Of a stretch of DNA of 64,000 nt, positions 6,186 through 53,177 are shown one piece after another. The notes beneath the pieces were generated by a model. The model worked only from the letters and a program-made list of their open reading frames with translations. It did no database searches and was not told the origin of the DNA. Positions within the stretch are counted from its first letter, which is position 1. Every line of letters starts with the position of its first letter. A program made the position numbers and the translations under genes. The DNA is taken from NCBI GenBank assembly GCA_016180725.1, contig JACPAR010000005.1, positions 22,654 to 86,653 of the forward strand, given 5' to 3'. This DNA comes from Candidatus Levyibacteriota bacterium (GTDB lineage: Bacteria; Patescibacteriota; Microgenomatia; Levybacterales; UBA12049).

Positions 6186-7415
6186 TTAATTTTTAAGCCT
6201 TTCCAATGTTTTTTCTTTTCCTAATATCTCTAATGTTTGCGGCAATGGTAAACCGCTGGTTTTACCGGTAAATATTTTATAAAAAATAGACATTTTTACT
6301 TTTTCACTTCCCATAAATTTTTTAAATACCGAAAATATTGCTTCGTTACTCCACTTATCTAGAATCGATAACTCTCGATAAAGTCTCTCTGCAATTTCTT
6401 TTTCTTCTTTGGTAAGACTAATATGCTGATCCTCCAAAAATGGAAAAGCAAGATCATAAAAGTCATTTAGGGTTGTTATTCTTGTTTGAGCAAGTGGTAC
6501 TAATTTTTGTATTAACGACTCATCAAGATAATTTTTTTTAATATTTAATATTTGATATTTGATATTTGATATTAATTCATCAGGCTTAGCTTGACGAATA
6601 TATACTCCATTCATCCATTCTAACTTTTTAACATCAAAAATTGGGCTTGCAGTATTTACATCTTTAAGATCAAATAATTTTATCATTTCTTCAATTGATA
6701 TAATTTCTCTATTCCCCCCCGGATTCCATCCCAAAAGTACCATAAAGTTAAGCAACGCTTCCTTAAGATAACCTTCATCTCTATAATCAAGCACCGATTT
6801 TGCACCGTGTCTTTTTGATAATTTTGTCTTATCCGGACCTAAAATAACAGGAAGATGAACAAATGTGGGAAGTTGCCAACCGAACGCGTTGTAAAGTTGA
6901 ATATGTTTTGGAGTTGAAGAAATAAATTCTTCTCCTCTTATCGCGTGGGAAATTTGCATAAGGTGATCATCTATAACATTTGCAAAATTGTAAGTTGGAT
7001 AACCATCAGATTTAATAATAACGAAATCTTCCTGCATACTATTGTCAAAAATAATTTCCTTTTTACCAATTTCATCAACCCAAGCAGTCCTACCTATCTT
7101 TGGCATTCTAAATCTAAATGCGCCCGAATCTTCGTAAGCAAAATTTTTATCGACCAGCTCACGCAGGTGTTTTTTATAAATTTCTAAACGATCTGACTGT
7201 TTATATTCTTCATCCCAATTAAGACCAAGCCATCTTAATATCTCATATATGGCCTTCTCGCTTTCCGGCACTAATCTTACTCTGTCGGTATCTTCTATAC
7301 GAAGAATAAATTTCCCGCTGTTTGCTTTTGCAAAAAGGAAATTATAAAGAGCAGTTCTTGTATTGCCTATGTGCGGAATTCCTGTTGGGCTTGGCGCAAT
7401 TCTTACTCTAACCAT
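6186..7415 (-). CDS. gltX: glutamyl-tRNA synthetase (short form)
   Basis: HIGH motif PHIGNTRTA and KMSKS-like KLSKRHG. The likely start is MVRVRIAPSPTG (ATG 7413-7415) rather than the first in-frame Met. Confidence 0.85.
   Translation of the reverse strand: MVRVRIAPSPTGIPHIGNTRTALYNFLFAKANSGKFILRIEDTDRVRLVPESEKAIYEILRWLGLNWDEEYKQSDRLEIYKKHLRELVDKNFAYEDSGAFRFRMPKIGRTAWVDEIGKKEIIFDNSMQEDFVIIKSDGYPTYNFANVIDDHLMQISHAIRGEEFISSTPKHIQLYNAFGWQLPTFVHLPVILGPDKTKLSKRHGAKSVLDYRDEGYLKEALLNFMVLLGWNPGGNREIISIEEMIKLFDLKDVNTASPIFDVKKLEWMNGVYIRQAKPDELISNIKYQILNIKKNYLDESLIQKLVPLAQTRITTLNDFYDLAFPFLEDQHISLTKEEKEIAERLYRELSILDKWSNEAIFSVFKKFMGSEKVKMSIFYKIFTGKTSGLPLPQTLEILGKEKTLERLKN
6541..6575. repeat. period-7 tandem repeat (ATATTTG)x5 inside gltX
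   Basis: Direct reading of the sequence. It translates in-frame as [13 protein letters not shown]. Confidence 0.75.
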
Positions 7416-7456
7416 ACTCCTTGCATTGTACCCCAAACTTTTTCTATACTCAAGAC

Positions 7457-8503
7457 ATGCCAACTCTTCATAAAGTAAAAGAGGGTATAAAAACGTCTTT
7501 AAAATTTGGCGTATATTCTTTAATAATTCTTTCTATTTTTCTGGTATTGATTAATATTGGCAAAAATCTTAAAGAACGTTTTTTCCCCACGCCTCCCCCA
7601 CTGCCAACTGTCTCTTTTGGAAAAATTCCTCCAAATAATTTTCCTAAAAACGCAACAGATAAAAATTTAACTTATACATTAAACACAGTTTCCGGAACAC
7701 TACCAACTTTTTCTGATAAAGCAAAGGTTTATAAGATTTTCCAACCGGAACCCACTCTTCTATCGCTTAAAAGGGCTCAGGAAAGTGTAGGAAAAATTAG
7801 TTTTACTTCACAACCTATAGCTCTTTCAGAAAGTATCTACCAATGGACAAATAATGATAATCTCTCTAGAAAAATTATCTTCAACATTACTTCTTTAAAT
7901 TTTAATTTATCTACAAATTTTCTTTTAACTAATCAAAATCTTTTAACTAATAAATATTTGGACGGAGCTGGTGCAAAAGATAAAGCGCAATCTTTTTTTT
8001 CCACCATGGATTCTTTTCCTGATGATATTGACTTAGCACAAACAAGAACATCTTTATTTGCGGTTGAAAACGGCGAACTTGTACCCGCCACGAGTTTATC
8101 CAATGCGACAATAGTCCGTGTTGATTTTTTTCAAAAAGATTTAGACAACATTCCCATTTTTTATCCCAACCCCTCTTTCTCTCTAATTCATGCTCTTCTA
8201 ACCGGATCTGAACCGCAAGGACAAATTATAGAGGCGAGTTTTTTTCATCATAACATAAGCAATAAAACAGCAACTTATCCTATAAAAACAGCAAATGAAG
8301 CTTTTTCGCAATTAAAAAAAGGCAATGCCTACATTGCTTCCTATAATGGCCCATCTAATGAAGCGGTAATTAAAAATGTTTTCTTGGGTTACTACTTAAA
8401 CGATAAGGAACAAGATTATTTAACACCGATTATCATTTTTCGAGGAGATTATAATTTTTTTGCTTATGTTGAGGCAATAAAAGATGATTGGATAGCTAAA
8501 TAA
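7457..8503 (+). CDS. hypothetical membrane-anchored/secreted protein
   Basis: N-terminal TM or signal segment and no recognisable domain. The ATG at 7457 is preferred over the TTG at 7421. Confidence 0.45.
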   Translation: MPTLHKVKEGIKTSLKFGVYSLIILSIFLVLINIGKNLKERFFPTPPPLPTVSFGKIPPNNFPKNATDKNLTYTLNTVSGTLPTFSDKAKVYKIFQPEPTLLSLKRAQESVGKISFTSQPIALSESIYQWTNNDNLSRKIIFNITSLNFNLSTNFLLTNQNLLTNKYLDGAGAKDKAQSFFSTMDSFPDDIDLAQTRTSLFAVENGELVPATSLSNATIVRVDFFQKDLDNIPIFYPNPSFSLIHALLTGSEPQGQIIEASFFHHNISNKTATYPIKTANEAFSQLKKGNAYIASYNGPSNEAVIKNVFLGYYLNDKEQDYLTPIIIFRGDYNFFAYVEAIKDDWIAK

Positions 8504-8506
8504 AAC

Positions 8507-9565
8507 TTATTTTGCTTGATTAGAAAATAAAGAACTTGCATTTACATAAGTTATTTTACCGCTAATAAGAGATAATAATTTTTCTGTATCATCAAACCTA
8601 TCCTGACTTTTCATAACAACGATAATAAACAAGTGGCCATTTTCCATTTTTGCCGTTGTCAAAACTCCACCGGCTTCATCTGTAAATCCTGTTTTTATGC
8701 CTCTTACTCCGTCTATTCCTAATAGTTTATTTAAATTGTGAATTTCATATAGTTTTGTACCTTCTATATTAGAAATTACCGCTCGTTGAGTTGCGACAAC
8801 CTTAGCTAATACCAGGTTTTTCATTACAATTGAAGAAAGTCTTGCTAAATCAAGTACTGTTGTGTAGTCTCCTTCATCTTCCAGTCCCGCAGAATCGGAA
8901 AAATGAGTATGAATTAAATTAAAAGCCTGTGCTTTATCATTCATCTTTTCAATAAATGCAGATTCTCCTCCTGGGTAATTTTGCGCTATAGCAATTGCAG
9001 CATCATTGCCGGAAGGCAAAAGCATTGCGTATAGTAAATCTTTAAATGAAAGCTTTTCTCCTTTTTTAAATCCTACAACAGCACCTTTAACGTTACCAGT
9101 CTTAATTGTTAAAATGTCATTCATGTTATAAAAATCTAGCGCTGTTAAAGCTGTCATAATTTTTGTTGTCGAAGCCATAGAAAAACGAAGGTATGCATTT
9201 TTTGAAAATAAAACAACTTTCGACTGATCGTCCATAATAACTGCTGCTTTAGCAGAAATATCCGGTTCTGATTTGCTTATTGAAAAATTGTTTGAACTCT
9301 TTACTCCAAGAACATCCCCCGATTTTACAGGATATGGAGCAAATACCAAATTAGTAAAAGAGGGGTTAGATAACTTATTATTTTCTATTTGCTTTTTTAA
9401 GGTTGTGTTTACTAAAATGAGATTAGCCAACAAGAAAAACAACGCTAATGGGGGTAGATAAAGATAATACTTTTTAAAATCTCTGGCATGAAAATCATTT
9501 AAAAATTTTTTGCACAGTAAGAAATTTTTCTTAAGCTTTTTTATTAAGAGTAGATAATCTTTCAT
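8507..9565 (-). CDS. dacA: D-alanyl-D-alanine carboxypeptidase (peptidase S11, PBP5/6-like)
   Basis: Motifs SxxK (ASTTK), SGN (PSGND) and KTG (KTGFT). Has an N-terminal TM segment. The ATG at 9565 has a GGAG RBS. Confidence 0.85.
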   Translation of the reverse strand: MKDYLLLIKKLKKNFLLCKKFLNDFHARDFKKYYLYLPPLALFFLLANLILVNTTLKKQIENNKLSNPSFTNLVFAPYPVKSGDVLGVKSSNNFSISKSEPDISAKAAVIMDDQSKVVLFSKNAYLRFSMASTTKIMTALTALDFYNMNDILTIKTGNVKGAVVGFKKGEKLSFKDLLYAMLLPSGNDAAIAIAQNYPGGESAFIEKMNDKAQAFNLIHTHFSDSAGLEDEGDYTTVLDLARLSSIVMKNLVLAKVVATQRAVISNIEGTKLYEIHNLNKLLGIDGVRGIKTGFTDEAGGVLTTAKMENGHLFIIVVMKSQDRFDDTEKLLSLISGKITYVNASSLFSNQAK

Positions 9566-10803: not shown

Positions 10804-10847
10804 ATATCTGGTAAAATATCTTTATACATAATACATTGATTTTACTG

Positions 10848-10876
10848 TCTTGACAAGCACTTCTTTGGGTGTTATA
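10848..10876 (+). promoter_or_regulatory. consensus sigma70-like promoter TTGACA-17-TATAGT
   Basis: TTGACA at 10848-10853, an exact 17-nt spacer, and TATAGT at 10871-10876. It is oriented toward ORF 11063. Confidence 0.5.
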
Positions 10877-10923
10877 GTCAAGCTGAAATGAATTTAGCGC
10901 TTATTATTAAAATGCACGTTATT

Positions 10924-11055
10924 TTCCTCCCCTTTACCTAAGGAGGGAGATTTTGTGCTGTTTTAAGAATACCAAATCTCCCCCAATAAAGGGGGATTTT
11001 AAGTGCGAAATAAACGTTCTTAATCTCCCAACAATTTTTGAAGGGAGATTTTTAA
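10924..11055 (+). promoter_or_regulatory. three tandem stem-loops (CCTCC..GGAGG / TCCCCC..GGGGGA / AATCTCCC..GGGAGATT), each followed by ATTTT, in the 5' leader
   Basis: Inverted repeats at 10926-10949, 10975-10999 and 11022-11050. The third is a perfect 8-bp stem. All share CTCCC...GGGAG(A)TTTT. Confidence 0.45.
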
Positions 11056-11062
11056 TGAAAAT

Positions 11063-11443: not shown

Positions 11444-11498
11444 TCCCTACATGTATAAGAAATAAGCAATACACCTGGGAAGTGGATTAGCTTGACAC

Positions 11499-13325
11499 CT
11501 AGGGTTTTATGTCTCTTATCTTTAGCTGCAATTTTTGACTTCCATTCCATTTATTTAAGTCAATTGTATAAGCAATATCAACGCTATCGCCAACATGAAA
11601 CTCGCTTGCCCTGTCACCCATCCCAAATGCAATCGCCTCAATTCTGAATTCTGAGTTCTTAATTTTGAATTTTAATTTTAGGTGTTTGTTTTCTCTCCCA
11701 ACAAATCTCATGTCTTCTATAACTACATTTCTGCTTACAAATGTTGGCTCCGGATTTGCCATACCAAATGGCGCCAGTTTTTGAACTGTATTATAAAGCT
11801 CTGTATCAACATAAAATAAAGGGATTTCCATATCTATTCGCAACAATCGGGTAAGCATATTCTCATCTATCAATTTATGGGCTTTTTTCTCAAGCATCTC
11901 TTTAAGAAGTATTAATTTTACGGTTTCTACTGTAAAACCTGCAGCCATTGGATGACCGCCTGCATCAACTAGCAACTCCGATGCTCCTCTTATAAATTCG
12001 ATCATATTAAAACCAGAAACCGATCTTGCCGATGCTTTACTGTATTTTTCGCCTATCGATAAAACTATTGCCGGTCTGTAAAACTCTTCCACTAACTTTC
12101 CTGCAACCAGCCCAATTACTCCCTGCTGATAACTTTCGTGCGCCACAAAAAGTAATTTTTTAATTTTTTCTTTCTGATTTTTTATTCCGTCTATTGCGTG
12201 AGAAACAGTTTCTCCTGTTACCCTTTGCCTTTCTTTATTAGTAGAACCAAGTTTGGAAGCAAGATTGCGGGCCCTGTCGGCGTTTTTTGTACATAAAAGC
12301 CGTAAGCTATCCATTGCATATTCAAGTCTCCCCATCGCATTAAGCCTGGGCGCAATAATATGACCGATTTCGTATGTTCTTATTTCCTTTAGGTTTATAA
12401 CCGCTTCTTTAAAAAGTTCCAAAAGCCCAACCCTTTTTGTTTTTTGCAACTTTTCCAAACCAAATTTTACAAGCGTTCTGTTGGCTCCGATTAAAGGAAC
12501 CAAATCGGCAACAGTAGCAAGCGCCACTAATTCTAAATGTGTGTCTCCCTTTTCCATTTTTAACTTTTCACTTTGAACTTTGAACTCTTGCGATAACAAG
12601 TATGCTACTCCCGTGCCGCATAACTTTGTCGTATGAACAATTGCATATGCGTTTGGCATTTTTTTTGACGGAACGTGATGGTCGGTAATTATTACATCAA
12701 TATTATTTTTGTTAGCAAAATCAACTGCCTCATTTGCCACAATTCCATTGTCTACAGTAATTATTAGTGCAATTTTTGCTATTTGATTTTTGATATTTGA
12801 TATCCCTGTCAATGAAAGACCGTATCCTTCATCAATTCTGTGAGGAATATAAGGTGTAACTTTTGCGCCCATCGCATGAAGCGTTTCCCACAAAATTGCA
12901 GTTCCGCAAATTCCGTCAACGTCGTAGTCACCAAAAACAACAATTTGTTCTTTATCTTCAATTGCTTTTTTAATTCTCTTAATAGCTTTTTGCAATTGCT
13001 TTTTATTAATACCAACGCTATCGGTAGTTACGTTTTCGAGTTTTGGATTAAGAAACTTATCTATTTCTTTTTTTGTTTTTATCCCCCGATTTTGAAACAA
13101 TAGTCTTACTAGTTCTTCAACTTTGAACTTTGAACTCTTGTCTCCTCGAGTCCCTCGGGACTGAGTCCTCGGGACGAACGTCTGAGCGACCGATTCGGCC
13201 TGAGGGCCCTTCGGTCTTGAGCTCAGGGTCGAAAGACTCACGGCCTCGAAGGCCTCGGAGTCGAAGACCTGAGCGGAGCCGAAGGGTTGAACTTTGAACT
13301 TACTTTGTATCTCCCATTTCTTCAT
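11499..13325 (-). CDS. recJ: single-stranded-DNA-specific exonuclease RecJ
   Basis: DHH motifs (VVFGDYDVDG, ITDHH) and the DHHA1 motif GGGHPMAAG. The first ~70 codons of the N-terminus read through a GC-rich inserted element. Confidence 0.85.
   Translation of the reverse strand: MKKWEIQSKFKVQPFGSAQVFDSEAFEAVSLSTLSSRPKGPQAESVAQTFVPRTQSRGTRGDKSSKFKVEELVRLLFQNRGIKTKKEIDKFLNPKLENVTTDSVGINKKQLQKAIKRIKKAIEDKEQIVVFGDYDVDGICGTAILWETLHAMGAKVTPYIPHRIDEGYGLSLTGISNIKNQIAKIALIITVDNGIVANEAVDFANKNNIDVIITDHHVPSKKMPNAYAIVHTTKLCGTGVAYLLSQEFKVQSEKLKMEKGDTHLELVALATVADLVPLIGANRTLVKFGLEKLQKTKRVGLLELFKEAVINLKEIRTYEIGHIIAPRLNAMGRLEYAMDSLRLLCTKNADRARNLASKLGSTNKERQRVTGETVSHAIDGIKNQKEKIKKLLFVAHESYQQGVIGLVAGKLVEEFYRPAIVLSIGEKYSKASARSVSGFNMIEFIRGASELLVDAGGHPMAAGFTVETVKLILLKEMLEKKAHKLIDENMLTRLLRIDMEIPLFYVDTELYNTVQKLAPFGMANPEPTFVSRNVVIEDMRFVGRENKHLKLKFKIKNSEFRIEAIAFGMGDRASEFHVGDSVDIAYTIDLNKWNGSQKLQLKIRDIKP
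11641..11682. repeat. period-7 tandem repeats (ATTCTGA / ATTTTGA / ATTTTAA) inside the recJ 3' region
   Basis: Direct reading of the sequence. It encodes KLKFKIKNSEFRI in frame. Confidence 0.7.
13119..13304. repeat. GC-rich (~65% GC) structured insertion flanked by AACTTTGAACTTTGAACT direct repeats, at the recJ 5' end / recJ-cca divergent region
   Basis: GC composition switches sharply at 13141-13289. Internal hairpins include GTCCCTCGGGAC, GGCCTCGAAGGCC and GACCGA..TCGGTC. The 21-nt flank ACTTTGAACTTTGAACTCTTG also occurs at 12561. The 3' part is about 80% identical to 13755-13795. Confidence 0.6.
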
Positions 13326-13336
13326 ACAAAATTTAT

Positions 13337-14782
13337 TTGCTATACTATAGCAGATCCGATAAGGGTGAACAAGCTGTGCAAAAACTTATTCCGAAAATCA
13401 TTTTAAAAATTTATAAAAAGCTTCAGGAAAACAACTTCGAAGTTTACCTGGTAGGTGGATCTGTTAGAAATCTCATAATGAAATTGCCTGTAAAAGATTG
13501 GGATTTAACAACTAACGCAACCCCAGAAGAAATGCTTAAACTTTTCCCAGATGGGTTTTATGACAATACTTTTGGGACAGTAGGTATTCCAATTGAAAAG
13601 GATGGGAAAAACCAAGTTGTTGAAGTAACAACCTTTCGCACCGAACATGGGTATACCGATCGAAGACGTCCGGATAAGGTTTTATGGGGAAAGACTATAG
13701 AAGAAGATCTCGCCCGCCGTGATTTTACAATCAACGCTATAGCCCTACACCTCGAAGGTGGCCGACTCGCCCTGAGCGAAGCCGAAGGGATGGACTACTT
13801 TGAGGTGAATAAAACTGAACTCATCGATCCATTTAATGGCAAAAAAGATATCGAAAATAAGCTCATCCGTGCAGTTGGCGATCCGGATCAACGATTCAAA
13901 GAAGATGCGCTAAGGCTTTTACGAGCAATACGAATCGCCACAGAGCTTTCTTTTACTATCGAAGAAAAAACCTGGAAGGAACTGGTTACCGACGCACCAC
14001 TTATCACTCAAATATCGGAAGAAAGAATACAAATAGAACTTATGCGGATTTTAGCAAGCAATTACCCATACGATGGAATTATGTTGCTTAGAAATTCCAC
14101 TCTTTTAGAACAAATTATTCCTGAGCTTTTAAAAGGCGTTGGCGTTTCCCAGGTAAGACCGGGCAGACACCACACAACAGATGTTTTTACCCATAACGTT
14201 TTATCGCTTAAATATACTCCGTCCACCGATCCTATTGTTAGATTTGCAGCGCTTTTACATGATGTTGGAAAACCTTACGTTGCCTCAACAGACGAACATG
14301 GTCTTGTAATCTTTCATAATCACGAAATTGTCGGCGCAAAGATGGCAAAAGAAATCTGCGAAAGACTAAAGTTCTCCAAAAAAGAACGGGAAAAAATTGT
14401 TAACCTTATCCGCTGGCATATGTTTACGGTTGATGAAAAAATCACCGACGCAGCGGTTCGAAGATTTATCCGCCGGGTTGGCGTTGAAAATGTAAAAGAT
14501 ATGATGGATCTTCGTATTGGAGATAGATTAGGCGGAGGAACACAAACTGCAGAAAGCTGGAGACTAAAGTTATTTAAAAAAAGAGTGGAAGATCAATTAA
14601 AACCCGCACCTTTTTCCATTAACGATTTAGTCATTGACGGGAATGATGTAATGAAAGAATTGAACATTAAGCCTGGTCCTAAAGTTGGCGAAATACTGCA
14701 AAAACTTTTTGAAGAAGTTGACGAAGACCTTTCAAGGAATAATCGTGAATACCTACTTAAACGCATACACGAATTAGACTAA
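13337..14782 (+). CDS. cca: CCA-adding tRNA nucleotidyltransferase with HD domain
   Basis: Pol-beta NTase head (LVGGSVRNL...DWDL), RDFTINA, and an HD motif HDVGKP. The start is a TTG at 13337 or a GTG at 13376 (VQKLIPK). Confidence 0.85.
   Translation: MLYYSRSDKGEQAVQKLIPKIILKIYKKLQENNFEVYLVGGSVRNLIMKLPVKDWDLTTNATPEEMLKLFPDGFYDNTFGTVGIPIEKDGKNQVVEVTTFRTEHGYTDRRRPDKVLWGKTIEEDLARRDFTINAIALHLEGGRLALSEAEGMDYFEVNKTELIDPFNGKKDIENKLIRAVGDPDQRFKEDALRLLRAIRIATELSFTIEEKTWKELVTDAPLITQISEERIQIELMRILASNYPYDGIMLLRNSTLLEQIIPELLKGVGVSQVRPGRHHTTDVFTHNVLSLKYTPSTDPIVRFAALLHDVGKPYVASTDEHGLVIFHNHEIVGAKMAKEICERLKFSKKEREKIVNLIRWHMFTVDEKITDAAVRRFIRRVGVENVKDMMDLRIGDRLGGGTQTAESWRLKLFKKRVEDQLKPAPFSINDLVIDGNDVMKELNIKPGPKVGEILQKLFEEVDEDLSRNNREYLLKRIHELD
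13755..13795. repeat. GC-rich element copy inserted in-frame in cca (encodes LEGGRLALSEAEG)
   Basis: CCTCGAAGG...GAGCGAAGCCGAAGGG aligns with the 3' part of the 13141-13289 element. Confidence 0.55.
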
Positions 14783-14871
14783 GCTTGTTCATCTTGCGTA
14801 TTGCAGCTTTGTCTTATATTACATAATTGTATATTATGTAATTTGTCTCGTTGACTAGACAACGATACAAT

Positions 14872-15282: not shown

Positions 15283-15286
15283 TATT

Positions 15287-17162: not shown

Positions 17163-17174
17163 GAAATTTTGATT

Positions 17175-18584: not shown

Positions 18585-19931
18585 TTAAATATTTTTTGTT
18601 CCATAAAACATTCTCAAAAATGTTCTGGTAACAACAATCGCCGAAAACATAGAAACCAATACTCCAATTGCAAGCGTTAATGCAAAACCCCTAACTCCTC
18701 CGCTACCAAAATAGTACAAGATACCACTTGTAATAAGGCTTGAAACATTAGAGTCCCTAATCGATGTCCATGCTCTAGTGAACCCAATTTCTATTGCCAT
18801 TTCCCATGCTCTTCCCCGACGAAGTTCTTCACGCATTCTTTCAAAAATAAGAATATTTGCATCAACAGCCATACCAATCGAAAGAATAAAACCGGCAATA
18901 CCTGCAAGAGTAAGAGTAACCGGAATAGCTTTAAATATCGCCATAACAAATAACGTATATAGAAAAAGTGCAATGCTTGCAATCATTCCAAGCCTTCCAT
19001 ATAAAACAACCATAAATATTACAATAATAATAAATCCTAACACTCCGGCAAATAAGCTTTTTTGCAAAGATGAAGCTCCAAGAGTCGGCCCGATTGTGCG
19101 CTGCTCAAGCACCGAAAGAGGAACAGGCAAAGCTCCTGCATTAAGTTGCAGTGCAAATCTTTTTGCATCTTCTGTTGTAAAATTTCCGGTAATTTGGCCA
19201 TCATCACGAATTGCCGCCTGAACTGTTGGCGCAGAGATAAATTGATTGTCTAAAAATATTGCCATGCGTTTGCCTATTAATCTTTGTGTTGTCTCGTAAA
19301 ACTTTTGCTGACTCTTATCTGCAACCCTAAAAAGAACAACCGGTTGCCCTGTATTACTATCAAAAGAAACCTGCGCTTCCTGCAAATCTGCTCCGCTTAA
19401 CCCCGTAGGCTTTGTGCTTTCTACAGCTGGTATTGTAGTAAGCTCTTTTTCTTGCACCTCGCGAAACTCTAGTTTTGCAGTTTTTCCTACCAAATTAACT
19501 GCTTCATTAAGATCTGTAATTCCGGGAAGCTCAATAACAATACGGTAATCATTTTTAACAGTGGCTGTTTGTACAAGAGGTTCTGAAACACCAAAGAAAT
19601 TAACTCTTCTTTCTATAACGGTTTTTGCACTATCCAACGCTGCGCTTCTTTGCGCCTGAGGAATATCTTTCATGTCCGCTTTAAGAGTAATACTTATTCC
19701 GCCTTCTAAATCAAGACCCTTACGAAATGAGAAAGTTTTTTCTATGCGTATTGGTCCTAAATTCAAACTTGGACCTATACCCTTAAAAGTTTTTTGAATA
19801 GAAATTTTCTTATTTATTATTGGTAATTTTGGTGTTTGAAAGGAAACAGGAATACTTGGAGGTAAGTTAATAAGAATAGATATTATTGTCAATGCAATAA
19901 TTAGCAAAAAGAGAATTCTTAAATTTTTCAT
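18585..19931 (-). CDS. secD: protein translocase subunit SecD
   Basis: SecD periplasmic domain followed by a C-terminal 6-TM bundle. Sits upstream of secF. Confidence 0.9.
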   Translation of the reverse strand: MKNLRILFLLIIALTIISILINLPPSIPVSFQTPKLPIINKKISIQKTFKGIGPSLNLGPIRIEKTFSFRKGLDLEGGISITLKADMKDIPQAQRSAALDSAKTVIERRVNFFGVSEPLVQTATVKNDYRIVIELPGITDLNEAVNLVGKTAKLEFREVQEKELTTIPAVESTKPTGLSGADLQEAQVSFDSNTGQPVVLFRVADKSQQKFYETTQRLIGKRMAIFLDNQFISAPTVQAAIRDDGQITGNFTTEDAKRFALQLNAGALPVPLSVLEQRTIGPTLGASSLQKSLFAGVLGFIIIVIFMVVLYGRLGMIASIALFLYTLFVMAIFKAIPVTLTLAGIAGFILSIGMAVDANILIFERMREELRRGRAWEMAIEIGFTRAWTSIRDSNVSSLITSGILYYFGSGGVRGFALTLAIGVLVSMFSAIVVTRTFLRMFYGTKNI

Positions 19932-23001: not shown

Positions 23002-23892
23002 TTATTTAAGTTCTTCAAGAATTGGATTTATGTCGATCTCTTCTACTGACTGTTTTACAAGTGGAGCTTGAGCTATTTGCAAAATACCATCACCCCAAGT
23101 TAAACGTTCTTCTTTGTATATTATTCCCGTTGGAATACTCTCTTTTTCTCCTTCCTTTAGGGGTAAACGGAGAGGCCATTGCTCAGCTAATGCAAACGCT
23201 TTTGCTTTATCTTTTGGATTATGTCCTTTTTCTTCGACTTTATAAACTCTTTCATAAAACCAAGTATAGGTGTTTTTATGGTTAAATGTTACGCATGGTT
23301 GCATGCTGTCTATAATAGAAAACCCTTTGTGTTTTACGCCTTCAACGATTAAGTCTGTTTCCCTTTTATGATCTCCGGCAAAACCCCGAGCTACGAAAGT
23401 TGCTCCTGCCGATATAGCAAGAGATAATGGATTTACAGGTGCTTCAACCGTAGGAGTTGGGGTTGCCTTATTTTTTTCTCCAATGTCAGTTGTTGGAGAA
23501 TATTGACCGGTTGTCAAACCGTATATTTGGTTATTATGAACAATTAAAGTTAGATCTATATTTCTTCTTGCTGCATGAATAAGATGATTTGTGCCCTCGC
23601 CATACTGATCACCGTCTCCTCCAATAACAATAACCGTTAAGCCGCTATTTGCAAGCTTAATTCCTTCTGCAACAGGCATTGGTCTTCCGTGCAATCCATT
23701 AAAACCGTAAGTTTTAACCCAATAAGGCAGTTTGCTGGAACACCCGATTCCGGAAACCAAAACCACTTCCCACGGATTAAGATTAAGTGCAACAATTGCA
23801 TTTTTTAAAGAAACCCAAATAGCCCAGTCACCACATCCCGGACACCAGTTTGGCTTATCGTACGTAATTTCTAAATCTTTAAGTTCTGACAT
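23002..23892 (-). CDS. korB: 2-oxoacid:ferredoxin oxidoreductase beta subunit (TPP-binding)
   Basis: CPGCGDWAIW and the TPP motif IVIGGDGD. Confidence 0.85.
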   Translation of the reverse strand: MSELKDLEITYDKPNWCPGCGDWAIWVSLKNAIVALNLNPWEVVLVSGIGCSSKLPYWVKTYGFNGLHGRPMPVAEGIKLANSGLTVIVIGGDGDQYGEGTNHLIHAARRNIDLTLIVHNNQIYGLTTGQYSPTTDIGEKNKATPTPTVEAPVNPLSLAISAGATFVARGFAGDHKRETDLIVEGVKHKGFSIIDSMQPCVTFNHKNTYTWFYERVYKVEEKGHNPKDKAKAFALAEQWPLRLPLKEGEKESIPTGIIYKEERLTWGDGILQIAQAPLVKQSVEEIDINPILEELK

Positions 23893-25628
23893 AAAATTTC
23901 CTTTACTTTTGCAACAATTTCTTCCGGGTAAAACGGCCGGCCATCATATTTTCTAAAATTATGATCAACAACTAATCCTGTATGTTCGCGAATAAGTCCT
24001 TCAAATTGTCCGGTCTTATTACCTTCAACTACAAGAGTTTTTTTGGCAGATTTTATTATCCTTTCTACTGCAGCGCCTGGAAATGGAGCAAGGTAAGACA
24101 CTTGCAACAAATTCGCATCAATACCTTCTTTTTCTAACCACTTCATTGCCTGCATAATTGGCATTTTTGACGAACCAAAAGCAATAATAGTTAATGGAGC
24201 ATCCTTTTTACCATACAATACCGGAGCTGGAAATTCTCGTATGGCAAATTCTAATTTTTTGAATCTCTTGTCCATCATTTTAATTCTGTTATCTGCTTCT
24301 TCATTATATAAACCTCTTTCATCATGTTCGTCAGAACCGGAAAAACCAATTCCTCCTTTTTGACCTGGAATTGAACGCGGAGAAATACCATCGTCTGTTA
24401 ATTCGTATCTTTCATAATCAACCATACCTTCTGTTTCCTGATCTGACAACATCTTCCCCCGCTCAATTCTATATTTTGAACTTAGAGCTTTAAAATTTTC
24501 AATTGGAGCTGTCGCATGTCCCTCCATTAAATATTTATCAACTAAAACTATTATGGGAAGTTGATATTTATCGGCCAAATTAAATGCATGCAGCGTTTGA
24601 GAAAAAGCTTCTGATACATCTCCGGGGGCAATAATAATTCTTGGAAAATCACCTTGAGCTGCGTGCATAACAAATCTAAGATCACCTTGTTCTGTCCATG
24701 TAGGAAATCCTGTTGCGGGTCCGGGCCGCATCCCTTCAACAATAACAAGAGGAGTTTCTGTTTGCGCAGAAAGACCAAGTGACTCAACCATTAAGGAAAA
24801 TCCTCCTCCGCTTGTTGCAGTCATACTTCTTACTCCGGCAAAAGATGCGCCAATTGCCATACTTATTGCCGATATTTCATCCTCTGGCTCTTTAACAACA
24901 ATACTGTATTTTAAGGCGCTGGAAACAAGAGTCGTAAGAATAGGATTAATTGGCGTCATTGGATAAATTGAAGCAAATTTTAATCCTGCTCTTATTGCGC
25001 CAAACGCTACCGCTTCTGCTCCTCCAATTAGTATATTTTTTTGAGGTTTTTTTTCAAAGCTAACCGAAAATTTTTTGGAGAAATTTTTTAAAACATAATC
25101 AAATCCGGCTTTAGAAGTATTTACATTTAAATAAACAATATTTTCGCCTTTTCTACCAAATGTATCCTCCATAATTCTTCGAAGAATTTCAAAATCTGAA
25201 TAAAAAAGCGCTAGAGATGCGCCAACAGAAACTGTATTAACCATTAATTTATCTGCGCCAACTTGTTTTGTTGATTCTAAAAGGGGAATGGGAACTAGAA
25301 GTACACTTGAAGCAAATTCATTGGGTTCTACCTTAATTGTATCTGGGTCATAAATTACAGCCGCATTTTCAAAAAGTTCGTGCTTGTGCTTATCGATTGT
25401 TTCACGATTTAAAGCTACTAAAATATCAACAGTTCGTTTTTGACAATATATCTCTTCATCACTTGCTCTAACATAATAGGCGTTATGCCCACCTCTAATT
25501 AAAGAAGGATATTCAACATAATCAAAAACAGAAAGACCAAGCCGGGTAAAAATTTTTGACATCATAATACCAGTTGTCATGATGCCGTAACCTGCTTCAC
25601 CACCAATTAACCATTGAATATCGTTCAT
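23871..25628 (-). CDS. korA: 2-oxoacid:ferredoxin oxidoreductase alpha subunit
   Basis: Gamma-like N-domain plus the alpha core. Overlaps korB. Confidence 0.85.
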   Translation of the reverse strand: MNDIQWLIGGEAGYGIMTTGIMMSKIFTRLGLSVFDYVEYPSLIRGGHNAYYVRASDEEIYCQKRTVDILVALNRETIDKHKHELFENAAVIYDPDTIKVEPNEFASSVLLVPIPLLESTKQVGADKLMVNTVSVGASLALFYSDFEILRRIMEDTFGRKGENIVYLNVNTSKAGFDYVLKNFSKKFSVSFEKKPQKNILIGGAEAVAFGAIRAGLKFASIYPMTPINPILTTLVSSALKYSIVVKEPEDEISAISMAIGASFAGVRSMTATSGGGFSLMVESLGLSAQTETPLVIVEGMRPGPATGFPTWTEQGDLRFVMHAAQGDFPRIIIAPGDVSEAFSQTLHAFNLADKYQLPIIVLVDKYLMEGHATAPIENFKALSSKYRIERGKMLSDQETEGMVDYERYELTDDGISPRSIPGQKGGIGFSGSDEHDERGLYNEEADNRIKMMDKRFKKLEFAIREFPAPVLYGKKDAPLTIIAFGSSKMPIMQAMKWLEKEGIDANLLQVSYLAPFPGAAVERIIKSAKKTLVVEGNKTGQFEGLIREHTGLVVDHNFRKYDGRPFYPEEIVAKVKEILCQNLKI

Positions 25629-25765
25629 ATTTAATTTGACACTAGAAAGTAGAAAATGGAAGGTAGAATTTGATGTTAGAAAACAGACAATAGATTTTAG
25701 CTAACTTCCAGGTTCTAACTTCAACTATCTATTTTTTATATTCTATCATCTATCGTCGAAGAATT

Positions 25766-26404: not shown

Positions 26405-27628
26405 CTAAATTAAGCTGAAAATATTTTTTACCTCTTTTATTCCTTTAATTAGATAGTCAACATCTTCTTCATCATTGTACAAATAAAAACTGGCGCGGGC
26501 GGAAGCAGGAATACCCAAGCGTTTGTGAAGCGGCATAGCACAATGATGTCCGGCTCTTATACAAATACCCATATTACCTAAAACCTGAGCAATGTCATGT
26601 GGATGTACTCCGTTTATATTAAAAGAAATTACTCCACTACGCCTATCTAAATCTCTTGGTCCATAAATATTTATACCTTCTATTTTCTCCATTTTTTGCA
26701 AAGCATATTTTATAAGTCTATTGTCATGTTTTTGAATATTTTCTATACCTGTACTATTTAAATACTCAATTGCGGCACCTAAGCTTACAATTCCGGCAAT
26801 ATCCGGAGTTCCTGCTTCGTACTTATGTGGAAGGTCGGCAAAAGTTGTATTTTCGATATTTACTTCTCGTATCATTTCTCCACCAAACATGAATGGTTGC
26901 ATATTATTCAAGAGATGCTTTTTTCCATACAATACACCAATACCCGTTCCTGCCATCATTTTGTGTCCCGAAAAAGCAAGAAAATCACAACCTAAATCTT
27001 GTACATCAACTTTTAAATGAGGAACAGATTGGGCTGCGTCAACCAAAACAAGAATATTAGGATTTATTTCTTTGACTTTTTTAATAATATCCTTTATTGG
27101 ATTTATAGTCCCTAATACATTTGAAACATGTGCTACTGCAAATATCTTCGCGCTCTTAATTCTTAATTCATAATTCTTAATTCCAGAATCTAAATCCAGA
27201 AAACCATTTTCATCTATATCAAGAACTAGAAAATCAGCATTTTTTTTAAGGGCAAGTTGCTGCCACGGCACAAAGTTTGAGTGGTGTTCCATAGTGGAAG
27301 TAATAATGCCCTCCTCCCTTTTAATATTGTGCGACACTAAGTAAGCAACTAAATTAATTGCTTCCGTTGTATTTCTGACAAAGATAATTTCCTCTGGATT
27401 TATTGCATTAATAAATTTCGCAACTTCTTGCCTCACTTTCCCTATCTTTTCTGTTGCTTTTTCGGCAATTGGGTATAAACCTCGTTTTACGTTAGCATTG
27501 TAGGTTTTGTAAAATTCCAAAATTGCATCAATAACAACCTGCGGTTTTTGGCTTGTTGCCGCAGAATCCAAATAAATTAATTTTTTGCCGTTAATTTTAT
27601 TTTTAAAAATTGGAAAATCTTTTTTCAT
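26405..27628 (-). CDS. sufS: cysteine desulfurase SufS
   Basis: PLP-Lys in SGHKM, RAGHHCA, and the class V fold pattern. Confidence 0.9.
   Translation of the reverse strand: MKKDFPIFKNKINGKKLIYLDSAATSQKPQVVIDAILEFYKTYNANVKRGLYPIAEKATEKIGKVRQEVAKFINAINPEEIIFVRNTTEAINLVAYLVSHNIKREEGIITSTMEHHSNFVPWQQLALKKNADFLVLDIDENGFLDLDSGIKNYELRIKSAKIFAVAHVSNVLGTINPIKDIIKKVKEINPNILVLVDAAQSVPHLKVDVQDLGCDFLAFSGHKMMAGTGIGVLYGKKHLLNNMQPFMFGGEMIREVNIENTTFADLPHKYEAGTPDIAGIVSLGAAIEYLNSTGIENIQKHDNRLIKYALQKMEKIEGINIYGPRDLDRRSGVISFNINGVHPHDIAQVLGNMGICIRAGHHCAMPLHKRLGIPASARASFYLYNDEEDVDYLIKGIKEVKNIFSLI
27155..27196. repeat. period-7 tandem repeat (TAATTCT-like) inside sufS
   Basis: Direct reading of the sequence. It encodes DSGIKNYELRIKSA in frame. 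Confidence 0.7.
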
Positions 27629-29597: not shown

Positions 29598-30318
29598 CCT
29601 TTTCTATTTTTTTAACAAGACTCATGCCACCAGATTTCTTAATTTTTCCATCTATTAAAACATGTACAAAATCTGGCTTTAAATAATGAAGAATTCTTTG
29701 ATAGTGAGTAATTAATAATATTCCTATTGAATATTTTTCTACGGCCTCCTGAATTTTTTCTGCAACAATTTTTAAACTATCTACATCAAGACCTGAATCT
29801 ATTTCATCTAAAATTGCAAATTTTGGGCGTAAAATTAGAAGCTGAACAATTTCCGCCCGTTTTTTTTCTCCGCCTGAAAAACCTTCATTTAAAAAACGGT
29901 ACATAAAACTTTCATCTAGTCCTACATCTTTAAGTGTTTTTTTTAATTCGTTTTTAAATTCAGAAAGCGGAATTTTTTTATCCGGATGAAGGGCTTTATA
30001 AGCAGTGCGTAAAAACGAAAGAAAAGATACTCCTGTTATTTCTACGGGTTGTTGAAAAGAAATAAACAAACCCTGCCTAGCTCTTTCCTCCGGCAATAAT
30101 TTGCTCATATCTTTCCCGTCAATTTGATATTTGATATTTGATATTTGATATTTGATATTGTAATTCGGGTGCCCCATTAAACTTAATGCAAGAGTTGTTT
30201 TTCCTGCCCCGTTTGGCCCCATGATTGCATGAATTTCACCTGGTCCCACAGTTAAATCCACACCTTTTAATATTTCTGAATTATTTATGTCGGCTTTAAA
30301 ATTTTTAATTTGTAACAT
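29578..30318 (-). CDS. sufC: FeS assembly ATPase SufC
   Basis: Walker [10 protein letters not shown] and signature FSGGEKKR. The start is MLQIKNF. A repeat-encoded insertion sits after Walker A. Confidence 0.9.
30120..30161. repeat. period-7 tandem repeat (ATATTTG)x~6 inside sufC
   Basis: Direct reading of the sequence. It encodes [15 protein letters not shown] in frame. Confidence 0.8.
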
Positions 30319-42826: not shown

Positions 42827-42828
42827 AA

Positions 42829-43461: not shown

Positions 43462-43963
43462 AATTAATTATGATCCTTCTTTTACTTTCCGAAATGTAAT
43501 CAAAATAAATATCCACTCTTTTTTTAGGCAACAATTTTCCAAGCTTTTCTGCCCATTCAATTGCAACAATTGAATTTTGATCATTAAGTATTTCTCTTAC
43601 TCCTAATCCCTCAAGGTCTTTTTCGCTTTCAATCCTGTATAAATCTATATGATAGAACATTTTTGATTTTTTATTTGCTCGCCTCGCTGCGAAGCGGGTA
43701 TTTTTGATATTTAATTTTTGATTTTTTATATTAATTTTATATGTTCTAACAATAATAAACGTTGGCGAAATAATTCTTCTTTCTATTCCTAATCCCTTTG
43801 CTAAACCCTGAACAAAGGTTGTTTTTCCAGCCCCTAGCTCTCCATGCAAGGCTATAACTTCTCCACCTTTAAGTTTTTTAGCAAACTCTTCTGCTACTTT
43901 TTGCGTTTCCTCAAAATTATGAGTAATAAATGTCTTTTCCTCTGTCATATTATTGATTGTCAT
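43454..43963 (-). CDS. tsaE: tRNA t6A biosynthesis ATPase TsaE
   Basis: P-loop HGELGAGKTTF and FYHIDLYR. Carries a ~25-aa insertion encoded by a repeat plus a GC-rich core. Confidence 0.75.
   Translation of the reverse strand: MTINNMTEEKTFITHNFEETQKVAEEFAKKLKGGEVIALHGELGAGKTTFVQGLAKGLGIERRIISPTFIIVRTYKINIKNQKLNIKNTRFAARRANKKSKMFYHIDLYRIESEKDLEGLGVREILNDQNSIVAIEWAEKLGKLLPKKRVDIYFDYISESKRRIIINYE
43661..43737. repeat. composite insertion in tsaE: GC-rich core (GCTCGCCTCGCTGCGAAGCGGG) followed by period-7 AT repeats
   Basis: Local GC spike followed by TTTTTGA/TATTTAA heptamers. It encodes KINIKNQKLNIKNTRFAARRANKK. Confidence 0.6.
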
Positions 43964-44008: not shown

Positions 44009-44030
44009 TAAAGTGCGAAACGATTATTTG

Positions 44031-45026: not shown

Positions 45027-45043
45027 TTTATTATTTTATACTG

Positions 45044-46339: not shown

Positions 46340-46352
46340 ACATATAAACTAA

Positions 46353-47889: not shown

Positions 47890-47907
47890 ATTTCGAATAT
47901 ATTTTAA

Positions 47908-48366: not shown

Positions 48367-48495
48367 TATTTGAAATCACCCCCTTGCCCGCCGACCAAGC
48401 GTTCCGTGAATTCCGATTGAATTGGAATCGAACATTAGAGCTTAGACGGGTCCTTTTATCTAGTTAAGCATAAATTTATCTTTTTATCAACCCCG

Positions 48496-49503: not shown

Positions 49504-49521
49504 ATAAATTTTTTAACTATC

Positions 49522-50778: not shown

Positions 50779-50784
50779 AGGTTG

Positions 50785-51213
50785 CTACAAGCTGCTGCAC
50801 ATTTTCTGGCAAATCTCTTTTGCCTGATCTCTAGGATATTGTTCTAAAGACTGAATGTCTTTAATTACTTTTTGAACCTGCGGAGATGAAGAAGCAATTT
50901 CTACAACGTCAATTTTAGATATTTCCTGCCTTATAAAATCAAGTCTTTTTTGCACCTCGTTTGCCGGAAGAGATAAAACTGATTTTATACCGCTGTTATC
51001 AATTGGGTTTGGCTCTTCTTTCGTACTAGCTCCCTCTACCTGGCTCTTTGGCTGGTTATTGGTAAATTTTAAAGAAACGCTGTTTGCATCTTTACTCAGA
51101 ATAATTTTTTTGGTTGCGTAACCGGCTAATACAATTAAAATAGATGTTACTAGCAGTACTATGAAGATTTTCTTTTTGTCCCAAACTTCTTCACTGGTAT
51201 TTATTTCCTGCAT
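50785..51213 (-). CDS. hypothetical membrane-anchored protein
   Basis: ORF-track ORF with one N-terminal TM segment. Confidence 0.35.
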   Translation of the reverse strand: MQEINTSEEVWDKKKIFIVLLVTSILIVLAGYATKKIILSKDANSVSLKFTNNQPKSQVEGASTKEEPNPIDNSGIKSVLSLPANEVQKRLDFIRQEISKIDVVEIASSSPQVQKVIKDIQSLEQYPRDQAKEICQKMCSSL

Positions 51214-51263
51214 GAGGTTATTGTAGGCAATAACGTAAACTTTTGCAAACTAAAATTAAAAGG

Positions 51264-53177
51264 TTATTTAATTAGTTGTTTCACCTTTTTTACAATACTT
51301 GCGGCATTAATACCAGCATCGGCAAGAAGTTCATCTTTAAGACCTGAACGAGAGATGTGGTCAACTGCCATTTTTTCAACTATTGCGCCGTTTTTTGATA
51401 AAGCAGATAAAACAAAATCCCCTAAGCCTCCATGCTCAAAATGATCCTCAACGGTAATAATGACGTTCTTTTTTGTTTCCGATATGCATTTTATAAGAGT
51501 CTTTTGATCGATAGGTTTAATTGAATAGCAATCAACAACCCGTATCATGATTCCTTTTTCTTTGAGGATATCGTACGCTTTTAATGCTTCGTGAACAGTA
51601 ATTCCTGCCGCAACTACGGTAAGTAAATCAATTTTAGATTTTTTAAGAATTTTTGATCCACCTATAGAAAACGATTCGTCCATATCGTAAAGAACAGGTG
51701 TTTTTGGCCGCAGTGTTCGAAGGTACGATATTCCAACATGCAATACAAGTTGTGGAATAAGTTTTGCAGTCGACACAGCATCCGAAGGATGAAGCACGAT
51801 TGAGTCAGGAAGCGTACCGAACATGGCAATATCTTCTAGTCCCATTTGTGATGGCCCGTCTTCACCAATAGAAACGCCGGCATGTGAACCGACAAATTTA
51901 ATATTAGCTCTTGAAATGGAAGACATTCTTATTTGATCAAAAGCTCTTGTTAGAAAGGCAGCAAATGTTGCAGCGAATGGAATCTTTCCCTGTGTAGACA
52001 AGCCAACCGCTATCCCAACCATATTCTGTTCTGCAATAAAACATTGTATAAATTGATCCGGTAGCTCTTTTTTAAATTTATTCACACCGGTAGAATTGGA
52101 AACATCGGCGTCAAGCGAATAAACACTTTTATTTAATTTTCCAATTGCTGCTAATACATCTCCAAAAGCTTCCCTGGTAGAAACTTCGCTACCTATGTTA
52201 TATGAATTTTTATCTTCAAAAGCTAGTGTTTTTAAATTTCTCTTAGAGTTTATTTTCTTTTGAGGTTTTCTAAGATTAAAAAGTATGGGGCTTTTCTCTA
52301 TTTTTTCATCTACAGGAAGTTCGCTTAAAGCTTTTTCTAACTCTTCTTTACTTAAAGGTTTACCATGTAAATCTTCTCTACCCTCTAAAAACGAAACTCC
52401 TTTGCCCTTAACTGTATTAGCAATTATCATAACCGGTTTTTCTGTTTTATTATTAATAGCATCCTTAAAAGCATCATCAATTTGATAAAAATCATGTCCG
52501 TCAATAACTAGAGTCTTAAAACCTATTGAAGAAAAAATGTTTTGATATTTTTTAACATCATGACCAAACATTGTTTTACCTCTTAGCTCCAATCCATTAA
52601 CGTCTAGAATTGCAATAAGATTATTAAGATTGTAATAAGAAGCAAAGCTAGCAGCTTCGTAAATTTGTCCCTCTTCACATTCCCCATCTCCCAAAAGCAC
52701 ATATACCTTTGGCATATTTGCTATTTGAAATTTGCTATTTGAAATTTGTGCTTTCAGCGCATATGCCATTCCTGCTCCAATCGATAGTCCTTGCCCTAAA
52801 GAACCTGTTGCTGCATCTGCATAAGGAAAATTGGGCGTAGGATGGCCTTCGAGTCTGCTTCCATATTTGCGTAGATTTAATAGTTCCTTTAATGGAAAAG
52901 CGCCGGTTAATGCAAAAAGTGTGTATAGCAAAGGCGCAGCATGACCTTTGGAAAAAATCAATTTATCATTATTGGGATTTTTAGGATATTTAATGTCATA
53001 ATTAAAATACTTTTCAAACAGAATTGTTGTTATCTCTACTGGAGACAAGCAAGAAGTGGGATGTCCGGATCCTACCTCGGTTGTTGATATTAAAGACCAT
53101 TTTCTTATAAGTGCTGCCTTATTCTTTAATTCTTCTATGTTTAGCATTTCAAAAATAATATATTTGTTATAATTCAT
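51264..53177 (-). CDS. tkt: transketolase
   Basis: TPP-binding N-domain (SGHPTS, GDGECEEGQ) and pyrimidine-binding/C-terminal domains. Confidence 0.9.
   Translation of the reverse strand: MNYNKYIIFEMLNIEELKNKAALIRKWSLISTTEVGSGHPTSCLSPVEITTILFEKYFNYDIKYPKNPNNDKLIFSKGHAAPLLYTLFALTGAFPLKELLNLRKYGSRLEGHPTPNFPYADAATGSLGQGLSIGAGMAYALKAQISNSKFQIANMPKVYVLLGDGECEEGQIYEAASFASYYNLNNLIAILDVNGLELRGKTMFGHDVKKYQNIFSSIGFKTLVIDGHDFYQIDDAFKDAINNKTEKPVMIIANTVKGKGVSFLEGREDLHGKPLSKEELEKALSELPVDEKIEKSPILFNLRKPQKKINSKRNLKTLAFEDKNSYNIGSEVSTREAFGDVLAAIGKLNKSVYSLDADVSNSTGVNKFKKELPDQFIQCFIAEQNMVGIAVGLSTQGKIPFAATFAAFLTRAFDQIRMSSISRANIKFVGSHAGVSIGEDGPSQMGLEDIAMFGTLPDSIVLHPSDAVSTAKLIPQLVLHVGISYLRTLRPKTPVLYDMDESFSIGGSKILKKSKIDLLTVVAAGITVHEALKAYDILKEKGIMIRVVDCYSIKPIDQKTLIKCISETKKNVIITVEDHFEHGGLGDFVLSALSKNGAIVEKMAVDHISRSGLKDELLADAGINAASIVKKVKQLIK
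52713..52750. repeat. period-7/14 tandem repeat (ATTTGCTATTTGAA)x2 inside tkt
   Basis: Direct reading of the sequence. It encodes AQISNSKFQIAN in frame. Confidence 0.7.

Follow-up and report, generated by a model that had tools for sequence, protein, structure and literature searches.

A 64-kb stretch (the window) of a Candidatus Levybacteria metagenome-assembled genome (MAG), from the candidate phyla radiation, carries ten tandem arrays of 7-nucleotide (nt) units, of 2 to 5.4 copies, within gltX, recJ (five sites), sufS, sufC, tsaE, and tkt. All ten sit on the coding strand of intact minus-strand open reading frames (ORFs), and every one is read through. These arrays are probably translated, in-frame heptanucleotide microsatellites, which are old in Levybacteria and are present more weakly in related lineages of the candidate phyla radiation.

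The arrays were called with Tandem Repeats Finder (TRF), and the host ORFs were named by NCBIfam, all above the curated cut-offs (Table 1). An earlier note on this DNA had listed heptamer repeats in these genes; TRF found an array within a few bases of each coordinate given there, and one more, the coding-upstream half of the array at hot spot 1 (HS1) of recJ. The repeats had been described as read through, and the peptides ISNIKYQ, SKFKVQ, NIKNQ, and IKNYELRIKS are indeed present in the translations of the intact ORFs. The view that they form a repeat family, and are not ordinary coding sequence, is likewise upheld. The 7-nt periodicity is perfect, the codons depend on the phase of the array (in sufC, isoleucine is encoded as ATC and as ATA), and period 7 is dominant outside ORFs as well.

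Table 1. Heptamer arrays and GC-rich elements of the window, in window coordinates (HS, hot spot of RecJ length variation; x, number of copies).
Feature	Position	Strand	Repeat unit	Peptide, sequence, or context
gltX array	6537-6573	minus	TRF TTTGATA x5.3; sense TATCAAA x5.3	
recJ HS5 array	11640-11671	minus	TRF AATTCTG x4.6; sense CAGAATT	KNSEFRI; hairpin of C-terminal OB domain
recJ HS3 array	12558-12586	minus	TRF TTTGAAC x4.1; sense GTTCAAA	EFKVQSEKLK
recJ HS2 array	12775-12803	minus	TRF TTTGATA x4.1; sense TATCAAA	ISNIKNQIA
recJ HS1 array (N-terminal), coding-downstream half	13119-13136	minus	TRF AACTTTG x2.6; sense AAGTTCA	
GC-rich element in recJ HS1	13137-13286	minus		150 nt, 64% GC, in frame; PFGSAQVFDSE...TRGDK
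recJ HS1 array, coding-upstream half	13287-13301	minus	sense AAGTTCA x2.1	
Second GC-rich core copy, in CCA-adding enzyme gene (13337-14782)	13750-13796	plus		CCTGAGCGAAGCCGAAGGG, read through
Weak period-7 array, leader (non-coding)	25643-25668	minus	CTTTCTA x3.7, 73% matches	15 nt upstream of ATG of ORF 23871-25628
sufS array	27154-27183	minus	TRF TCTTAAT x4.3; sense ATTAAGA	IKNYELRIKS
sufC array	30122-30159	minus	TRF ATTTGAT x5.4, 100% matches; sense ATCAAAT	over Y-x-V-x-G-G-x-V hairpin
GC-rich mini-element in tsaE	43677-43699	minus		23-nt near-palindrome ACCCGCTTCGCAGCGAGGCGAGC; splits (TCAAAAA)-type array
tsaE array	43700-43738	minus	CAAAAAT / TATCAAA	INIKNQKLNIKN
tkt array	52715-52748	minus	alternating heptamers ATTTCAA / ATAGCAA, period 14 x2.4	QISNSKFQIAN

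The preference for a period of 7 was assessed against chance. Long exact period-7 runs in the window numbered 3, versus 0.1 in dinucleotide shuffles, with other periods at expectation, and a mismatch-tolerant detector found 5 period-7 runs versus 0.0 expected. In the window and its relatives taken together, exact arrays of at least three copies occurred 15 times at period 7, versus 0 expected, and were absent at periods 5, 6, and 8 to 12. Two-copy duplications of 7 nt were not clearly elevated (2.2-fold at period 7, 1.7-fold at period 6, and 2.3-fold at period 8), which indicates that the specificity for period 7 resides in arrays of at least three copies. Among Levybacteria and relatives with RecJ 43 to 51% identical, period 7 accounted for 50 of the 75 arrays inside ORFs and for 13 of the 19 outside them. 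Since period 7 is dominant outside ORFs too, the preference acts on DNA and not solely via selection on the peptide, and it is a property of DNA metabolism in this lineage. At distant loci (RecJ at most 40% identical) ORF arrays are mainly of period 6, 9, or 12, as coding sequence predicts. According to a 2025 survey of 117,861 complete genomes, the coding sequence of prokaryotes contains trinucleotide units more often than any others (PMC12699852).

The density of period-7 arrays falls with distance from Levybacteria. Metagenome contigs were scanned with a RecJ alignment, and the 80 loci kept were pooled with earlier loci, arrays being counted at 2.9 copies or more for periods 4 to 15. Levybacteria (RecJ at least 59% identical; 9 loci, 132 kb) have 23.5 period-7 arrays per 100 kb and at most 2.3 of any other period. 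The corresponding values are 9.5 and at most 4.0 where RecJ is 43 to 51% identical (20 loci, 253 kb), a group in which many arrays lie within recJ at HS2 and HS3, and 1.6 and at most 2.8 where RecJ is at most 40% identical (67 loci, 871 kb).

Arrays also recur at the same positions of the same proteins. The window RecJ is 100% identical to a protein of an NCBI MAG labelled Candidatus Levybacteria bacterium. We compared it with 119 further relatives that are 60 to 70% identical to it and 542 to 649 amino acids (aa) long, the named ones coming from Levybacteria, Levyibacteriota, or the Patescibacteria group. In a 22-sequence alignment, the length differences concentrate at five hot spots (HS1 to HS5), whose peptides across genomes include QNSEFRI, QNSKFKI, KFKVQSS, QISNLK, and SNIKYQI. 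These peptides are what three heptamer copies translate into; (CAGAATT)3, for example, gives QNSEFRI, and (TTCAAAA)3 gives FKIQNSK. Of the 120 RecJ orthologues, 66 had a run of at least 8 consecutive residues that a perfect heptamer array can encode; among 2,400 shuffled sequences there was no such case. The hairpin site of SufC (GHPxY...DGKDM) behaves similarly, in that nearly all of 120 relatives (65 to 77% identity) differ there and yet remain heptamer-like, e.g., FKVQSSKFKVNG; in SufC pairs at least 78% identical, every indel listed falls in this site. The pair P0222 and P0230 (94% identical) differs in the hairpin site only. Given this recurrence, which extends to the RecJ relatives at 43 to 51% identity, the arrays are not genome-specific, contrary to the suggestion in the earlier note.

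The recurrence also bears on whether the arrays could be an artefact of assembly or binning, arising from collapsed or chimeric reads. The window does come from a MAG, and short tandem repeats are prone to misassembly, but dozens of assemblies made independently of one another (NCBI, JGI, ENA, and Logan) have arrays of this kind at the same codon positions. They are, moreover, always in frame and always stop-free, and a sequencing read is far longer than their 25 to 40 nt. We therefore consider the chance of an artefact to be negligible.

Comparison of recJ at the codon level in seven genes (the window, L001 to L005, and L012) showed that each site has its own family of units. At HS1, the unit is (AAGTTCA)n in the window and L003, (AAATTCA)n in L002, (AAACTCA)n in L004, and (AAAATCA)-like in L001, while the array is decayed in L005 and absent in L012. 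Each of these arrays is internally uniform and orthologous arrays are 1 to 2 unit bases apart, and the same is true of HS2 to HS5. A loop of the CCA-adding enzyme, encoded beside recJ, holds (AAAACCT)n in L001, (AACAATG)n in L002, and (AACGACN)n in L003, with a decayed array in L012 and none in L004 or L017. That units are specific to a site and common to several genomes indicates descent and turnover in place, and not insertion from a common source. Internal uniformity together with divergence between orthologous arrays, as read from the sequences, fits concerted evolution.

The arrays bear an imprint of the reading frame. Since 7 is not divisible by 3, successive copies of a unit pass through all three frames, and the encoded peptide repeats itself every 7 residues, after three units (21 nt). 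The earlier note had observed that (ATCAAAT)n is stop-free in all three frames; this holds for the sense strand, and the reverse complement carries TGA. In the window and nine Levybacteria loci there are 35 arrays in ORFs (181 kb) and 5 outside (15 kb). All 35 of the former are oriented to read through, in genes on both strands, and the core TCAAA lies on the sense strand in 17 ORF arrays and on the antisense strand in none. Most units in the window and six loci are stop-free in the three sense frames, and nearly all have an antisense stop. Intergenic units, by contrast, contain stops (TAAATGC, CTAAATA, and TTTAGAA). In the (AAAACCT)n array in the CCA-adding enzyme gene of L001, a TAA is due in one phase, and exactly that codon reads TAT. 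This single change is the expected look of an array that is built at the DNA level and patched by selection.

The segments occupied by the arrays are, to judge from structural comparison and modelling, structurally permissive surface hairpins and loops. None of the solved orthologues of SufC, SufS, Tkt, TsaE, and GltX from unrelated taxa has an array. In SufC, the array covers the Y-E-V-T-G-G-T-V-E-F hairpin of the solved orthologue with a net gain of 4 aa. SufS gains 3 aa relative to the Bacillus subtilis protein, and Tkt 7 aa relative to human transketolase, which equals three units. TsaE is approximately 21 residues longer than the solved structures, a gain made up of the array and a GC-rich piece, and GltX shows a net change of approximately 0 relative to the Thermotoga maritima GluRS. 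The description of the arrays as insertions where orthologues have short loops needs correcting, as existing sequence is replaced as much as it is added to. The comparisons indicate that the arrays take over permissive surface segments and are not mere insertions into short loops. In an AlphaFold2 model of SufC (109 relatives; mean predicted local distance difference test score [pLDDT] of 91.9), the array is predicted to form strands 53 to 55 and 63 to 66 with the intervening loop, and nowhere in the model is confidence lower than across residues 53 to 66 (76).

Could the protein, and not the DNA, be what is selected? A 7-residue amphipathic peptide, consisting of a strand and a turn, might serve as a functional hairpin arm or interaction module, with the DNA period being secondary. 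The array positions are conserved across a phylum and cover existing hairpins instead of random sites, array density in ORFs is not far under that of intergenic DNA, and the enriched core is of a suitable kind, given that TCAAAN1N2 translates as S-[K/N]-[F/L/I/V]-K-x-Q-x, in which polar and hydrophobic residues alternate. Selection on a peptide cannot, however, maintain a perfect 7-nt periodicity in DNA, nor does it account for the dominance of period 7 outside ORFs. Moreover, the sequence at a given site is hypervariable, with nearly every SufC relative being different; the array is missing from some orthologues (L012, L004, and L017), some units require a patched stop codon, and the same sites accept unrelated GC-rich inserts. 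We regard protein-level selection as an unlikely primary cause.

Changes in length were followed at several levels of divergence. Seven RecJ variants that are 97.5 to 99.8% identical (P0004 to P0010, of which P0005 carries arrays) are all 557 aa long and show no indel, which indicates that the arrays are not hypermutable on the scale of strains, unlike contingency loci. In RecJ pairs at 80 to 96% identity, indels concentrate at the array sites. Gaps of 7 aa were found there in the pairs P0066/P0084 and P0047/P0113, and for the former the difference at the DNA level is exactly 21 nt, or three units, inside the HS1 array (L097 versus L098). P0041 and P0050, which are 96% identical overall, have KFKIQN in one and KYQISN in the other. 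The suggestion that the repeats are slippage-prone is therefore sustained as regards change by whole units, and not as regards rapid mutation. Strict quantisation of the indels in steps of three units was borne out only in part, and the many indels that are not whole-unit multiples indicate that compensated events and more complex ones must also occur. The hazard that the earlier note had pointed out, a frameshift in an essential gene upon gain or loss of one unit, is real, and these observations resolve it only partly.

A second kind of sequence is nested in the arrays. The 150-nt element at HS1 of recJ does not belong to the heptamer family. Its length is a multiple of 3, and it is placed in register within (AAGTTCA)n; when the two halves of the interrupted array are joined, they give five in-register units, matching the uninterrupted array of L003. 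The array is therefore older than the element or at least independent of it. The predicted fold has an energy of −77.9 kcal/mol (z = −3.4 versus shuffles), and the element has no Rfam match; a search of the recJ N-terminal region (12900 to 13500) at a permissive threshold gave matches at chance level only. Because element and array are in register, target duplications of 0 bp and 7n bp look alike. The boundaries given for the short elements are tentative.

The core of this element has a second copy in the window, in the gene of the CCA-adding enzyme, where CCTGAGCGAAGCCGAAGGGATGGACT is 88% identical to positions 13268 to 13293. This copy is translated in the opposite direction to that in recJ (LSEAEG versus PFGSAQ), and relatives hold heptamer arrays at the same loop. 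In tsaE, the array picks up again downstream of the 23-nt element, as AAAAAATCAAAAATG. A conserved core of approximately 19 nt, CCCTTCGRCTYCGCTCAGR, encoding PFDFAQ, LRLRSGQ, or FDKLRTR, recurs across Levybacteria genomes, in or beside recJ heptamer arrays (L001, 10930 to 10946; L003, 11509 to 11525 and at HS2; and the window, 13269 and 13772); CCCTTCGRCTYCGCTCAGG is an example of the core of such mini-elements. This core has the look of a tiny dispersed element for which arrays are favored places of insertion. The nested elements point to a second, possibly mobile layer.

Other inserts were seen at the same protein sites. Longer, hairpin-type in-frame inserts occur at RecJ hot spots in P0045, P0075, P0093, P0102, and P0116, and at HS5 in L001 and L002. 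Their peptides include NLFQDLK...MLKQVQHD, CHPERSEGSQ...AQNDI, and CHAELVSAS, and their DNA consists of inverted repeats such as TGTCATGCTGAACTTGTTTCAGCA. Some of the SufC relatives (P0121 to P0240) have tiny GC-rich inserts at the hairpin turn (HPPAGGS, NPPVGGS, and IPAEGEARQGRQ), which replace the array or lie within it.

The nesting raises the question of whether a mobile element system produced the arrays themselves or targets them, either through repeated insertion and excision of GC-rich elements, leaving 7-bp duplications that accumulate into arrays, or through the insertion of preformed arrays, which would make them selfish DNA, as the earlier note had supposed. Arrays cover approximately 0.5% of the window, and the nesting, seen at HS1 of recJ, in tsaE, at HS2 and HS5 of L003, and at HS4 of L001, is far above the expectation from this coverage. 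The strong TCAAA core, the problem of an in-frame origin, and the restriction of exact arrays of at least three copies to period 7 would also suit a sequence-specific mechanism. Against this, L003 has an uninterrupted array, in register, where the window has the 150-nt element, and this element together with a 7-bp duplication would break the frame. The arrays have no terminal inverted repeats or conserved ends, and no transposase was linked to them. Their units differ among the sites of one genome, yet at any one site the units of different genomes are related, a pattern that indicates vertical descent in place. No signature of mobility was found, and a mobile origin of the arrays is, in our view, improbable.

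The account that we favor, in-frame microsatellites of long standing, would work as follows. A lineage-specific DNA process with a strong 7-nt preference would build tandem arrays throughout the genome. Within genes, selection would retain those that fall in permissive segments (surface β-hairpins, loops, and N-termini), that are oriented so that none of the three sense frames has a stop, and that preserve the downstream reading frame; the alternating peptide encoded by TCAAAN1N2 could lengthen a hairpin. Turnover in place, through slippage during replication or through unequal exchange, would proceed by three units at a time or with some other compensation, and it would homogenise each array while orthologous arrays drift apart.

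Several points weigh against this account. That the arrays are translated is argued from frame and stop avoidance, and slippage and the tolerance filter are likewise inferred. Arrays that share an orthologous site cannot be counted as independent, and the Levybacteria sample, approximately 200 kb of DNA, is centred on recJ. Indels at array sites are not mainly of 7 aa, the commonest in SufC being 2 aa. Classical slippage needs at least four units in order to add three, so that a seed of two units could not grow in this way, and it does not account for the in-frame origin of an array within an essential gene. Finally, TCAAA is found in 57% of ORF arrays, versus 2.7% expected from the base composition of the sense strand and a stop-free filter. 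We read this enrichment as a filter of protein tolerability, but a sequence-specific DNA mechanism could equally explain it.

Such a mechanism might be a dedicated one, by which Levybacteria and their relatives write 7-nt arrays into genes in frame-preserving packets. The writing may be done by whatever machinery serves the nested GC-rich mini-elements in transposition or repair, or by a polymerase or primase that slips in a 7-nt register, and the arrays may act as landing pads for these elements. We hold this to be a long shot. If true, it would mean that ultra-small bacteria harbor an in-frame genomic parasite or mutator of a class not described before, and it would give a mechanistic handle on the over-representation of heptamers among prokaryotic repeats.

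Heptamer arrays were also noticed farther afield, in loci of other small-genome lineages. L016 (Pacearchaeota, DPANN) has arrays at 12018 to 12048 (AAAATCA x4.4), which may encode the N terminus MKIKNQKEKIK, and at 19564 to 19616 (AAATTCT/ATTTAGG). L009 (Moraniibacteriota) has one at 12592 to 12639 (AATTCGT x7.1), and L008 (Planctomycetia) one at 640 to 672 (TTACGAG x4.7). Heptamer-coded peptides are present in P0352, an ABC ATPase fragment from ENA (EFRIQNSEFRIQSSEFRIQ), and within a recognisable protein of Haemophilus influenzae, P0318 (PF11898), which indicates that in-frame heptamer arrays extend beyond the candidate phyla radiation. A protein-database query with a concatenated array peptide was discarded as a gauge of taxonomic breadth because it is circular and carries little information on housekeeping genes. 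It returned mostly short hypothetical ORFs over long arrays of unrelated bacteria (Acinetobacter, Haemophilus, Bdellovibrio, and Yersinia), along with a single ABC ATPase whose peptides are of the (CAGAATT) type. Pairs of degenerate heptamer arrays, roughly inverted and 70 to 150 nt apart, were seen in AT-rich intergenic DNA at L022 (20820 to 20944), L024 (4869 to 5049), and L029 (9003 to 9102); those of L022 and L024 were dropped as meaningful structures since they resemble degenerate AT-rich promoter regions.

As to the rest of the window, nearly all genes from 17.6 to 58.6 kb are on the minus strand, and the GC skew of the plus strand is steadily negative. At the gathering threshold, no Rfam family was matched in the whole 64 kb, and so there was no tRNA, rRNA, or riboswitch hit. 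The window SufS protein has no exact match on record.

Within genes, selection normally acts against tandem repeats with a unit length indivisible by three, and here a 7-nt unit is the dominant genic tandem repeat, essential genes included, at positions that genomes have in common. Levybacteria offer a natural test system for the over-representation of heptamers, for the tolerance of genes to the hazard of single-unit slips, and for the entry of new peptides into the conserved proteins of streamlined genomes. In practical terms, array segments inflate apparent divergence and create gaps in the marker alignments used for phylogeny of the candidate phyla radiation, and they may pass for frameshift errors or for "domains" peculiar to a lineage.

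Our searches of the full-text literature, some directed at heptamer or tandem repeats in Patescibacteria, Levybacteria, or the candidate phyla radiation, turned up no description of in-frame heptamer arrays. In their tandem excess, whole-unit change, and internal homogeneity, the arrays conform to the heptanucleotide class of prokaryotic simple sequence repeats (SSRs). Heptanucleotide SSRs are reported to be over-represented in prokaryotes, a finding that PMC4692102 credits to a 2007 study. The G-rich heptamers GGGAATC of Xanthomonas and GGGGA(C/T)T of Nostoc lie mostly between genes, and coding regions have fewer of them than expected (PMC4692102). They share with the Levybacteria arrays a head-to-tail arrangement, an unexplained preference for 7, dispersal over the genome, and an abundance that depends on lineage. 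In Levybacteria, however, the units are A-rich (TCAAANN), 35 of 40 arrays are inside ORFs, and many are in essential genes at conserved positions.

The short tandemly repeated repetitive (STRR) heptamers of heterocyst-forming cyanobacteria were reportedly found by Vioque in 1997 inside the RNase P RNA gene. They, too, are lineage-specific 7-nt tandem units able to occupy an essential gene, but in another taxon and with other units, and their host gene is an RNA, so that no reading frame is at stake. The host, Candidatus Levybacteria, and the A-rich TCAAANN units set the window arrays apart from STRR sequences. Elhai et al. are said to have described, in 2008, very small hairpin elements associated with the Nostoc heptamer repeats, which would parallel the nested GC-rich elements.

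Rickettsia palindromic elements (RPEs) are dispersed copies of one palindrome of approximately 100 to 150 bp that lie in frame in protein-coding genes. [quoted passage not shown] Both are selfish DNA, and in both, as in Levybacteria, repeats are read through to give additional peptide where essential proteins are permissive. The heptamer arrays, however, have no long shared sequence or palindrome, their units differing by site. The nested GC-rich elements (150, approximately 47, and 23 nt), which have a shared core, are closer to the RPE/MITE class.

Heptanucleotide tracts of 13 to 38 copies at hmw1A and hmw2A of H. influenzae exemplify contingency loci, in which the tracts lie in promoters or surface-protein genes and switch expression on and off variably among strains (PMC2651432). 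Both systems consist of heptanucleotide tandem repeats, in which a change of one unit alters frame or expression. The Levybacteria arrays, however, have 3 to 8 copies and lie in housekeeping genes (gltX, recJ, sufS, sufC, tsaE, and tkt, in the window), no frameshifted alleles were seen, the host ORFs of the window are intact, and the near-identical RecJ variants P0004 to P0010 do not differ in length.

A likeness at the protein level is to the low-complexity insertions in housekeeping proteins of Plasmodium falciparum (PMC3140889). In both cases, an AT-rich genome encodes fast-evolving peptides rich in N, K, and I, which are thought to derive from slippage, in surface loops of conserved proteins. 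The Plasmodium tracts, however, are mostly codon-periodic or homopolymeric, in contrast with the period of 7 in Levybacteria.

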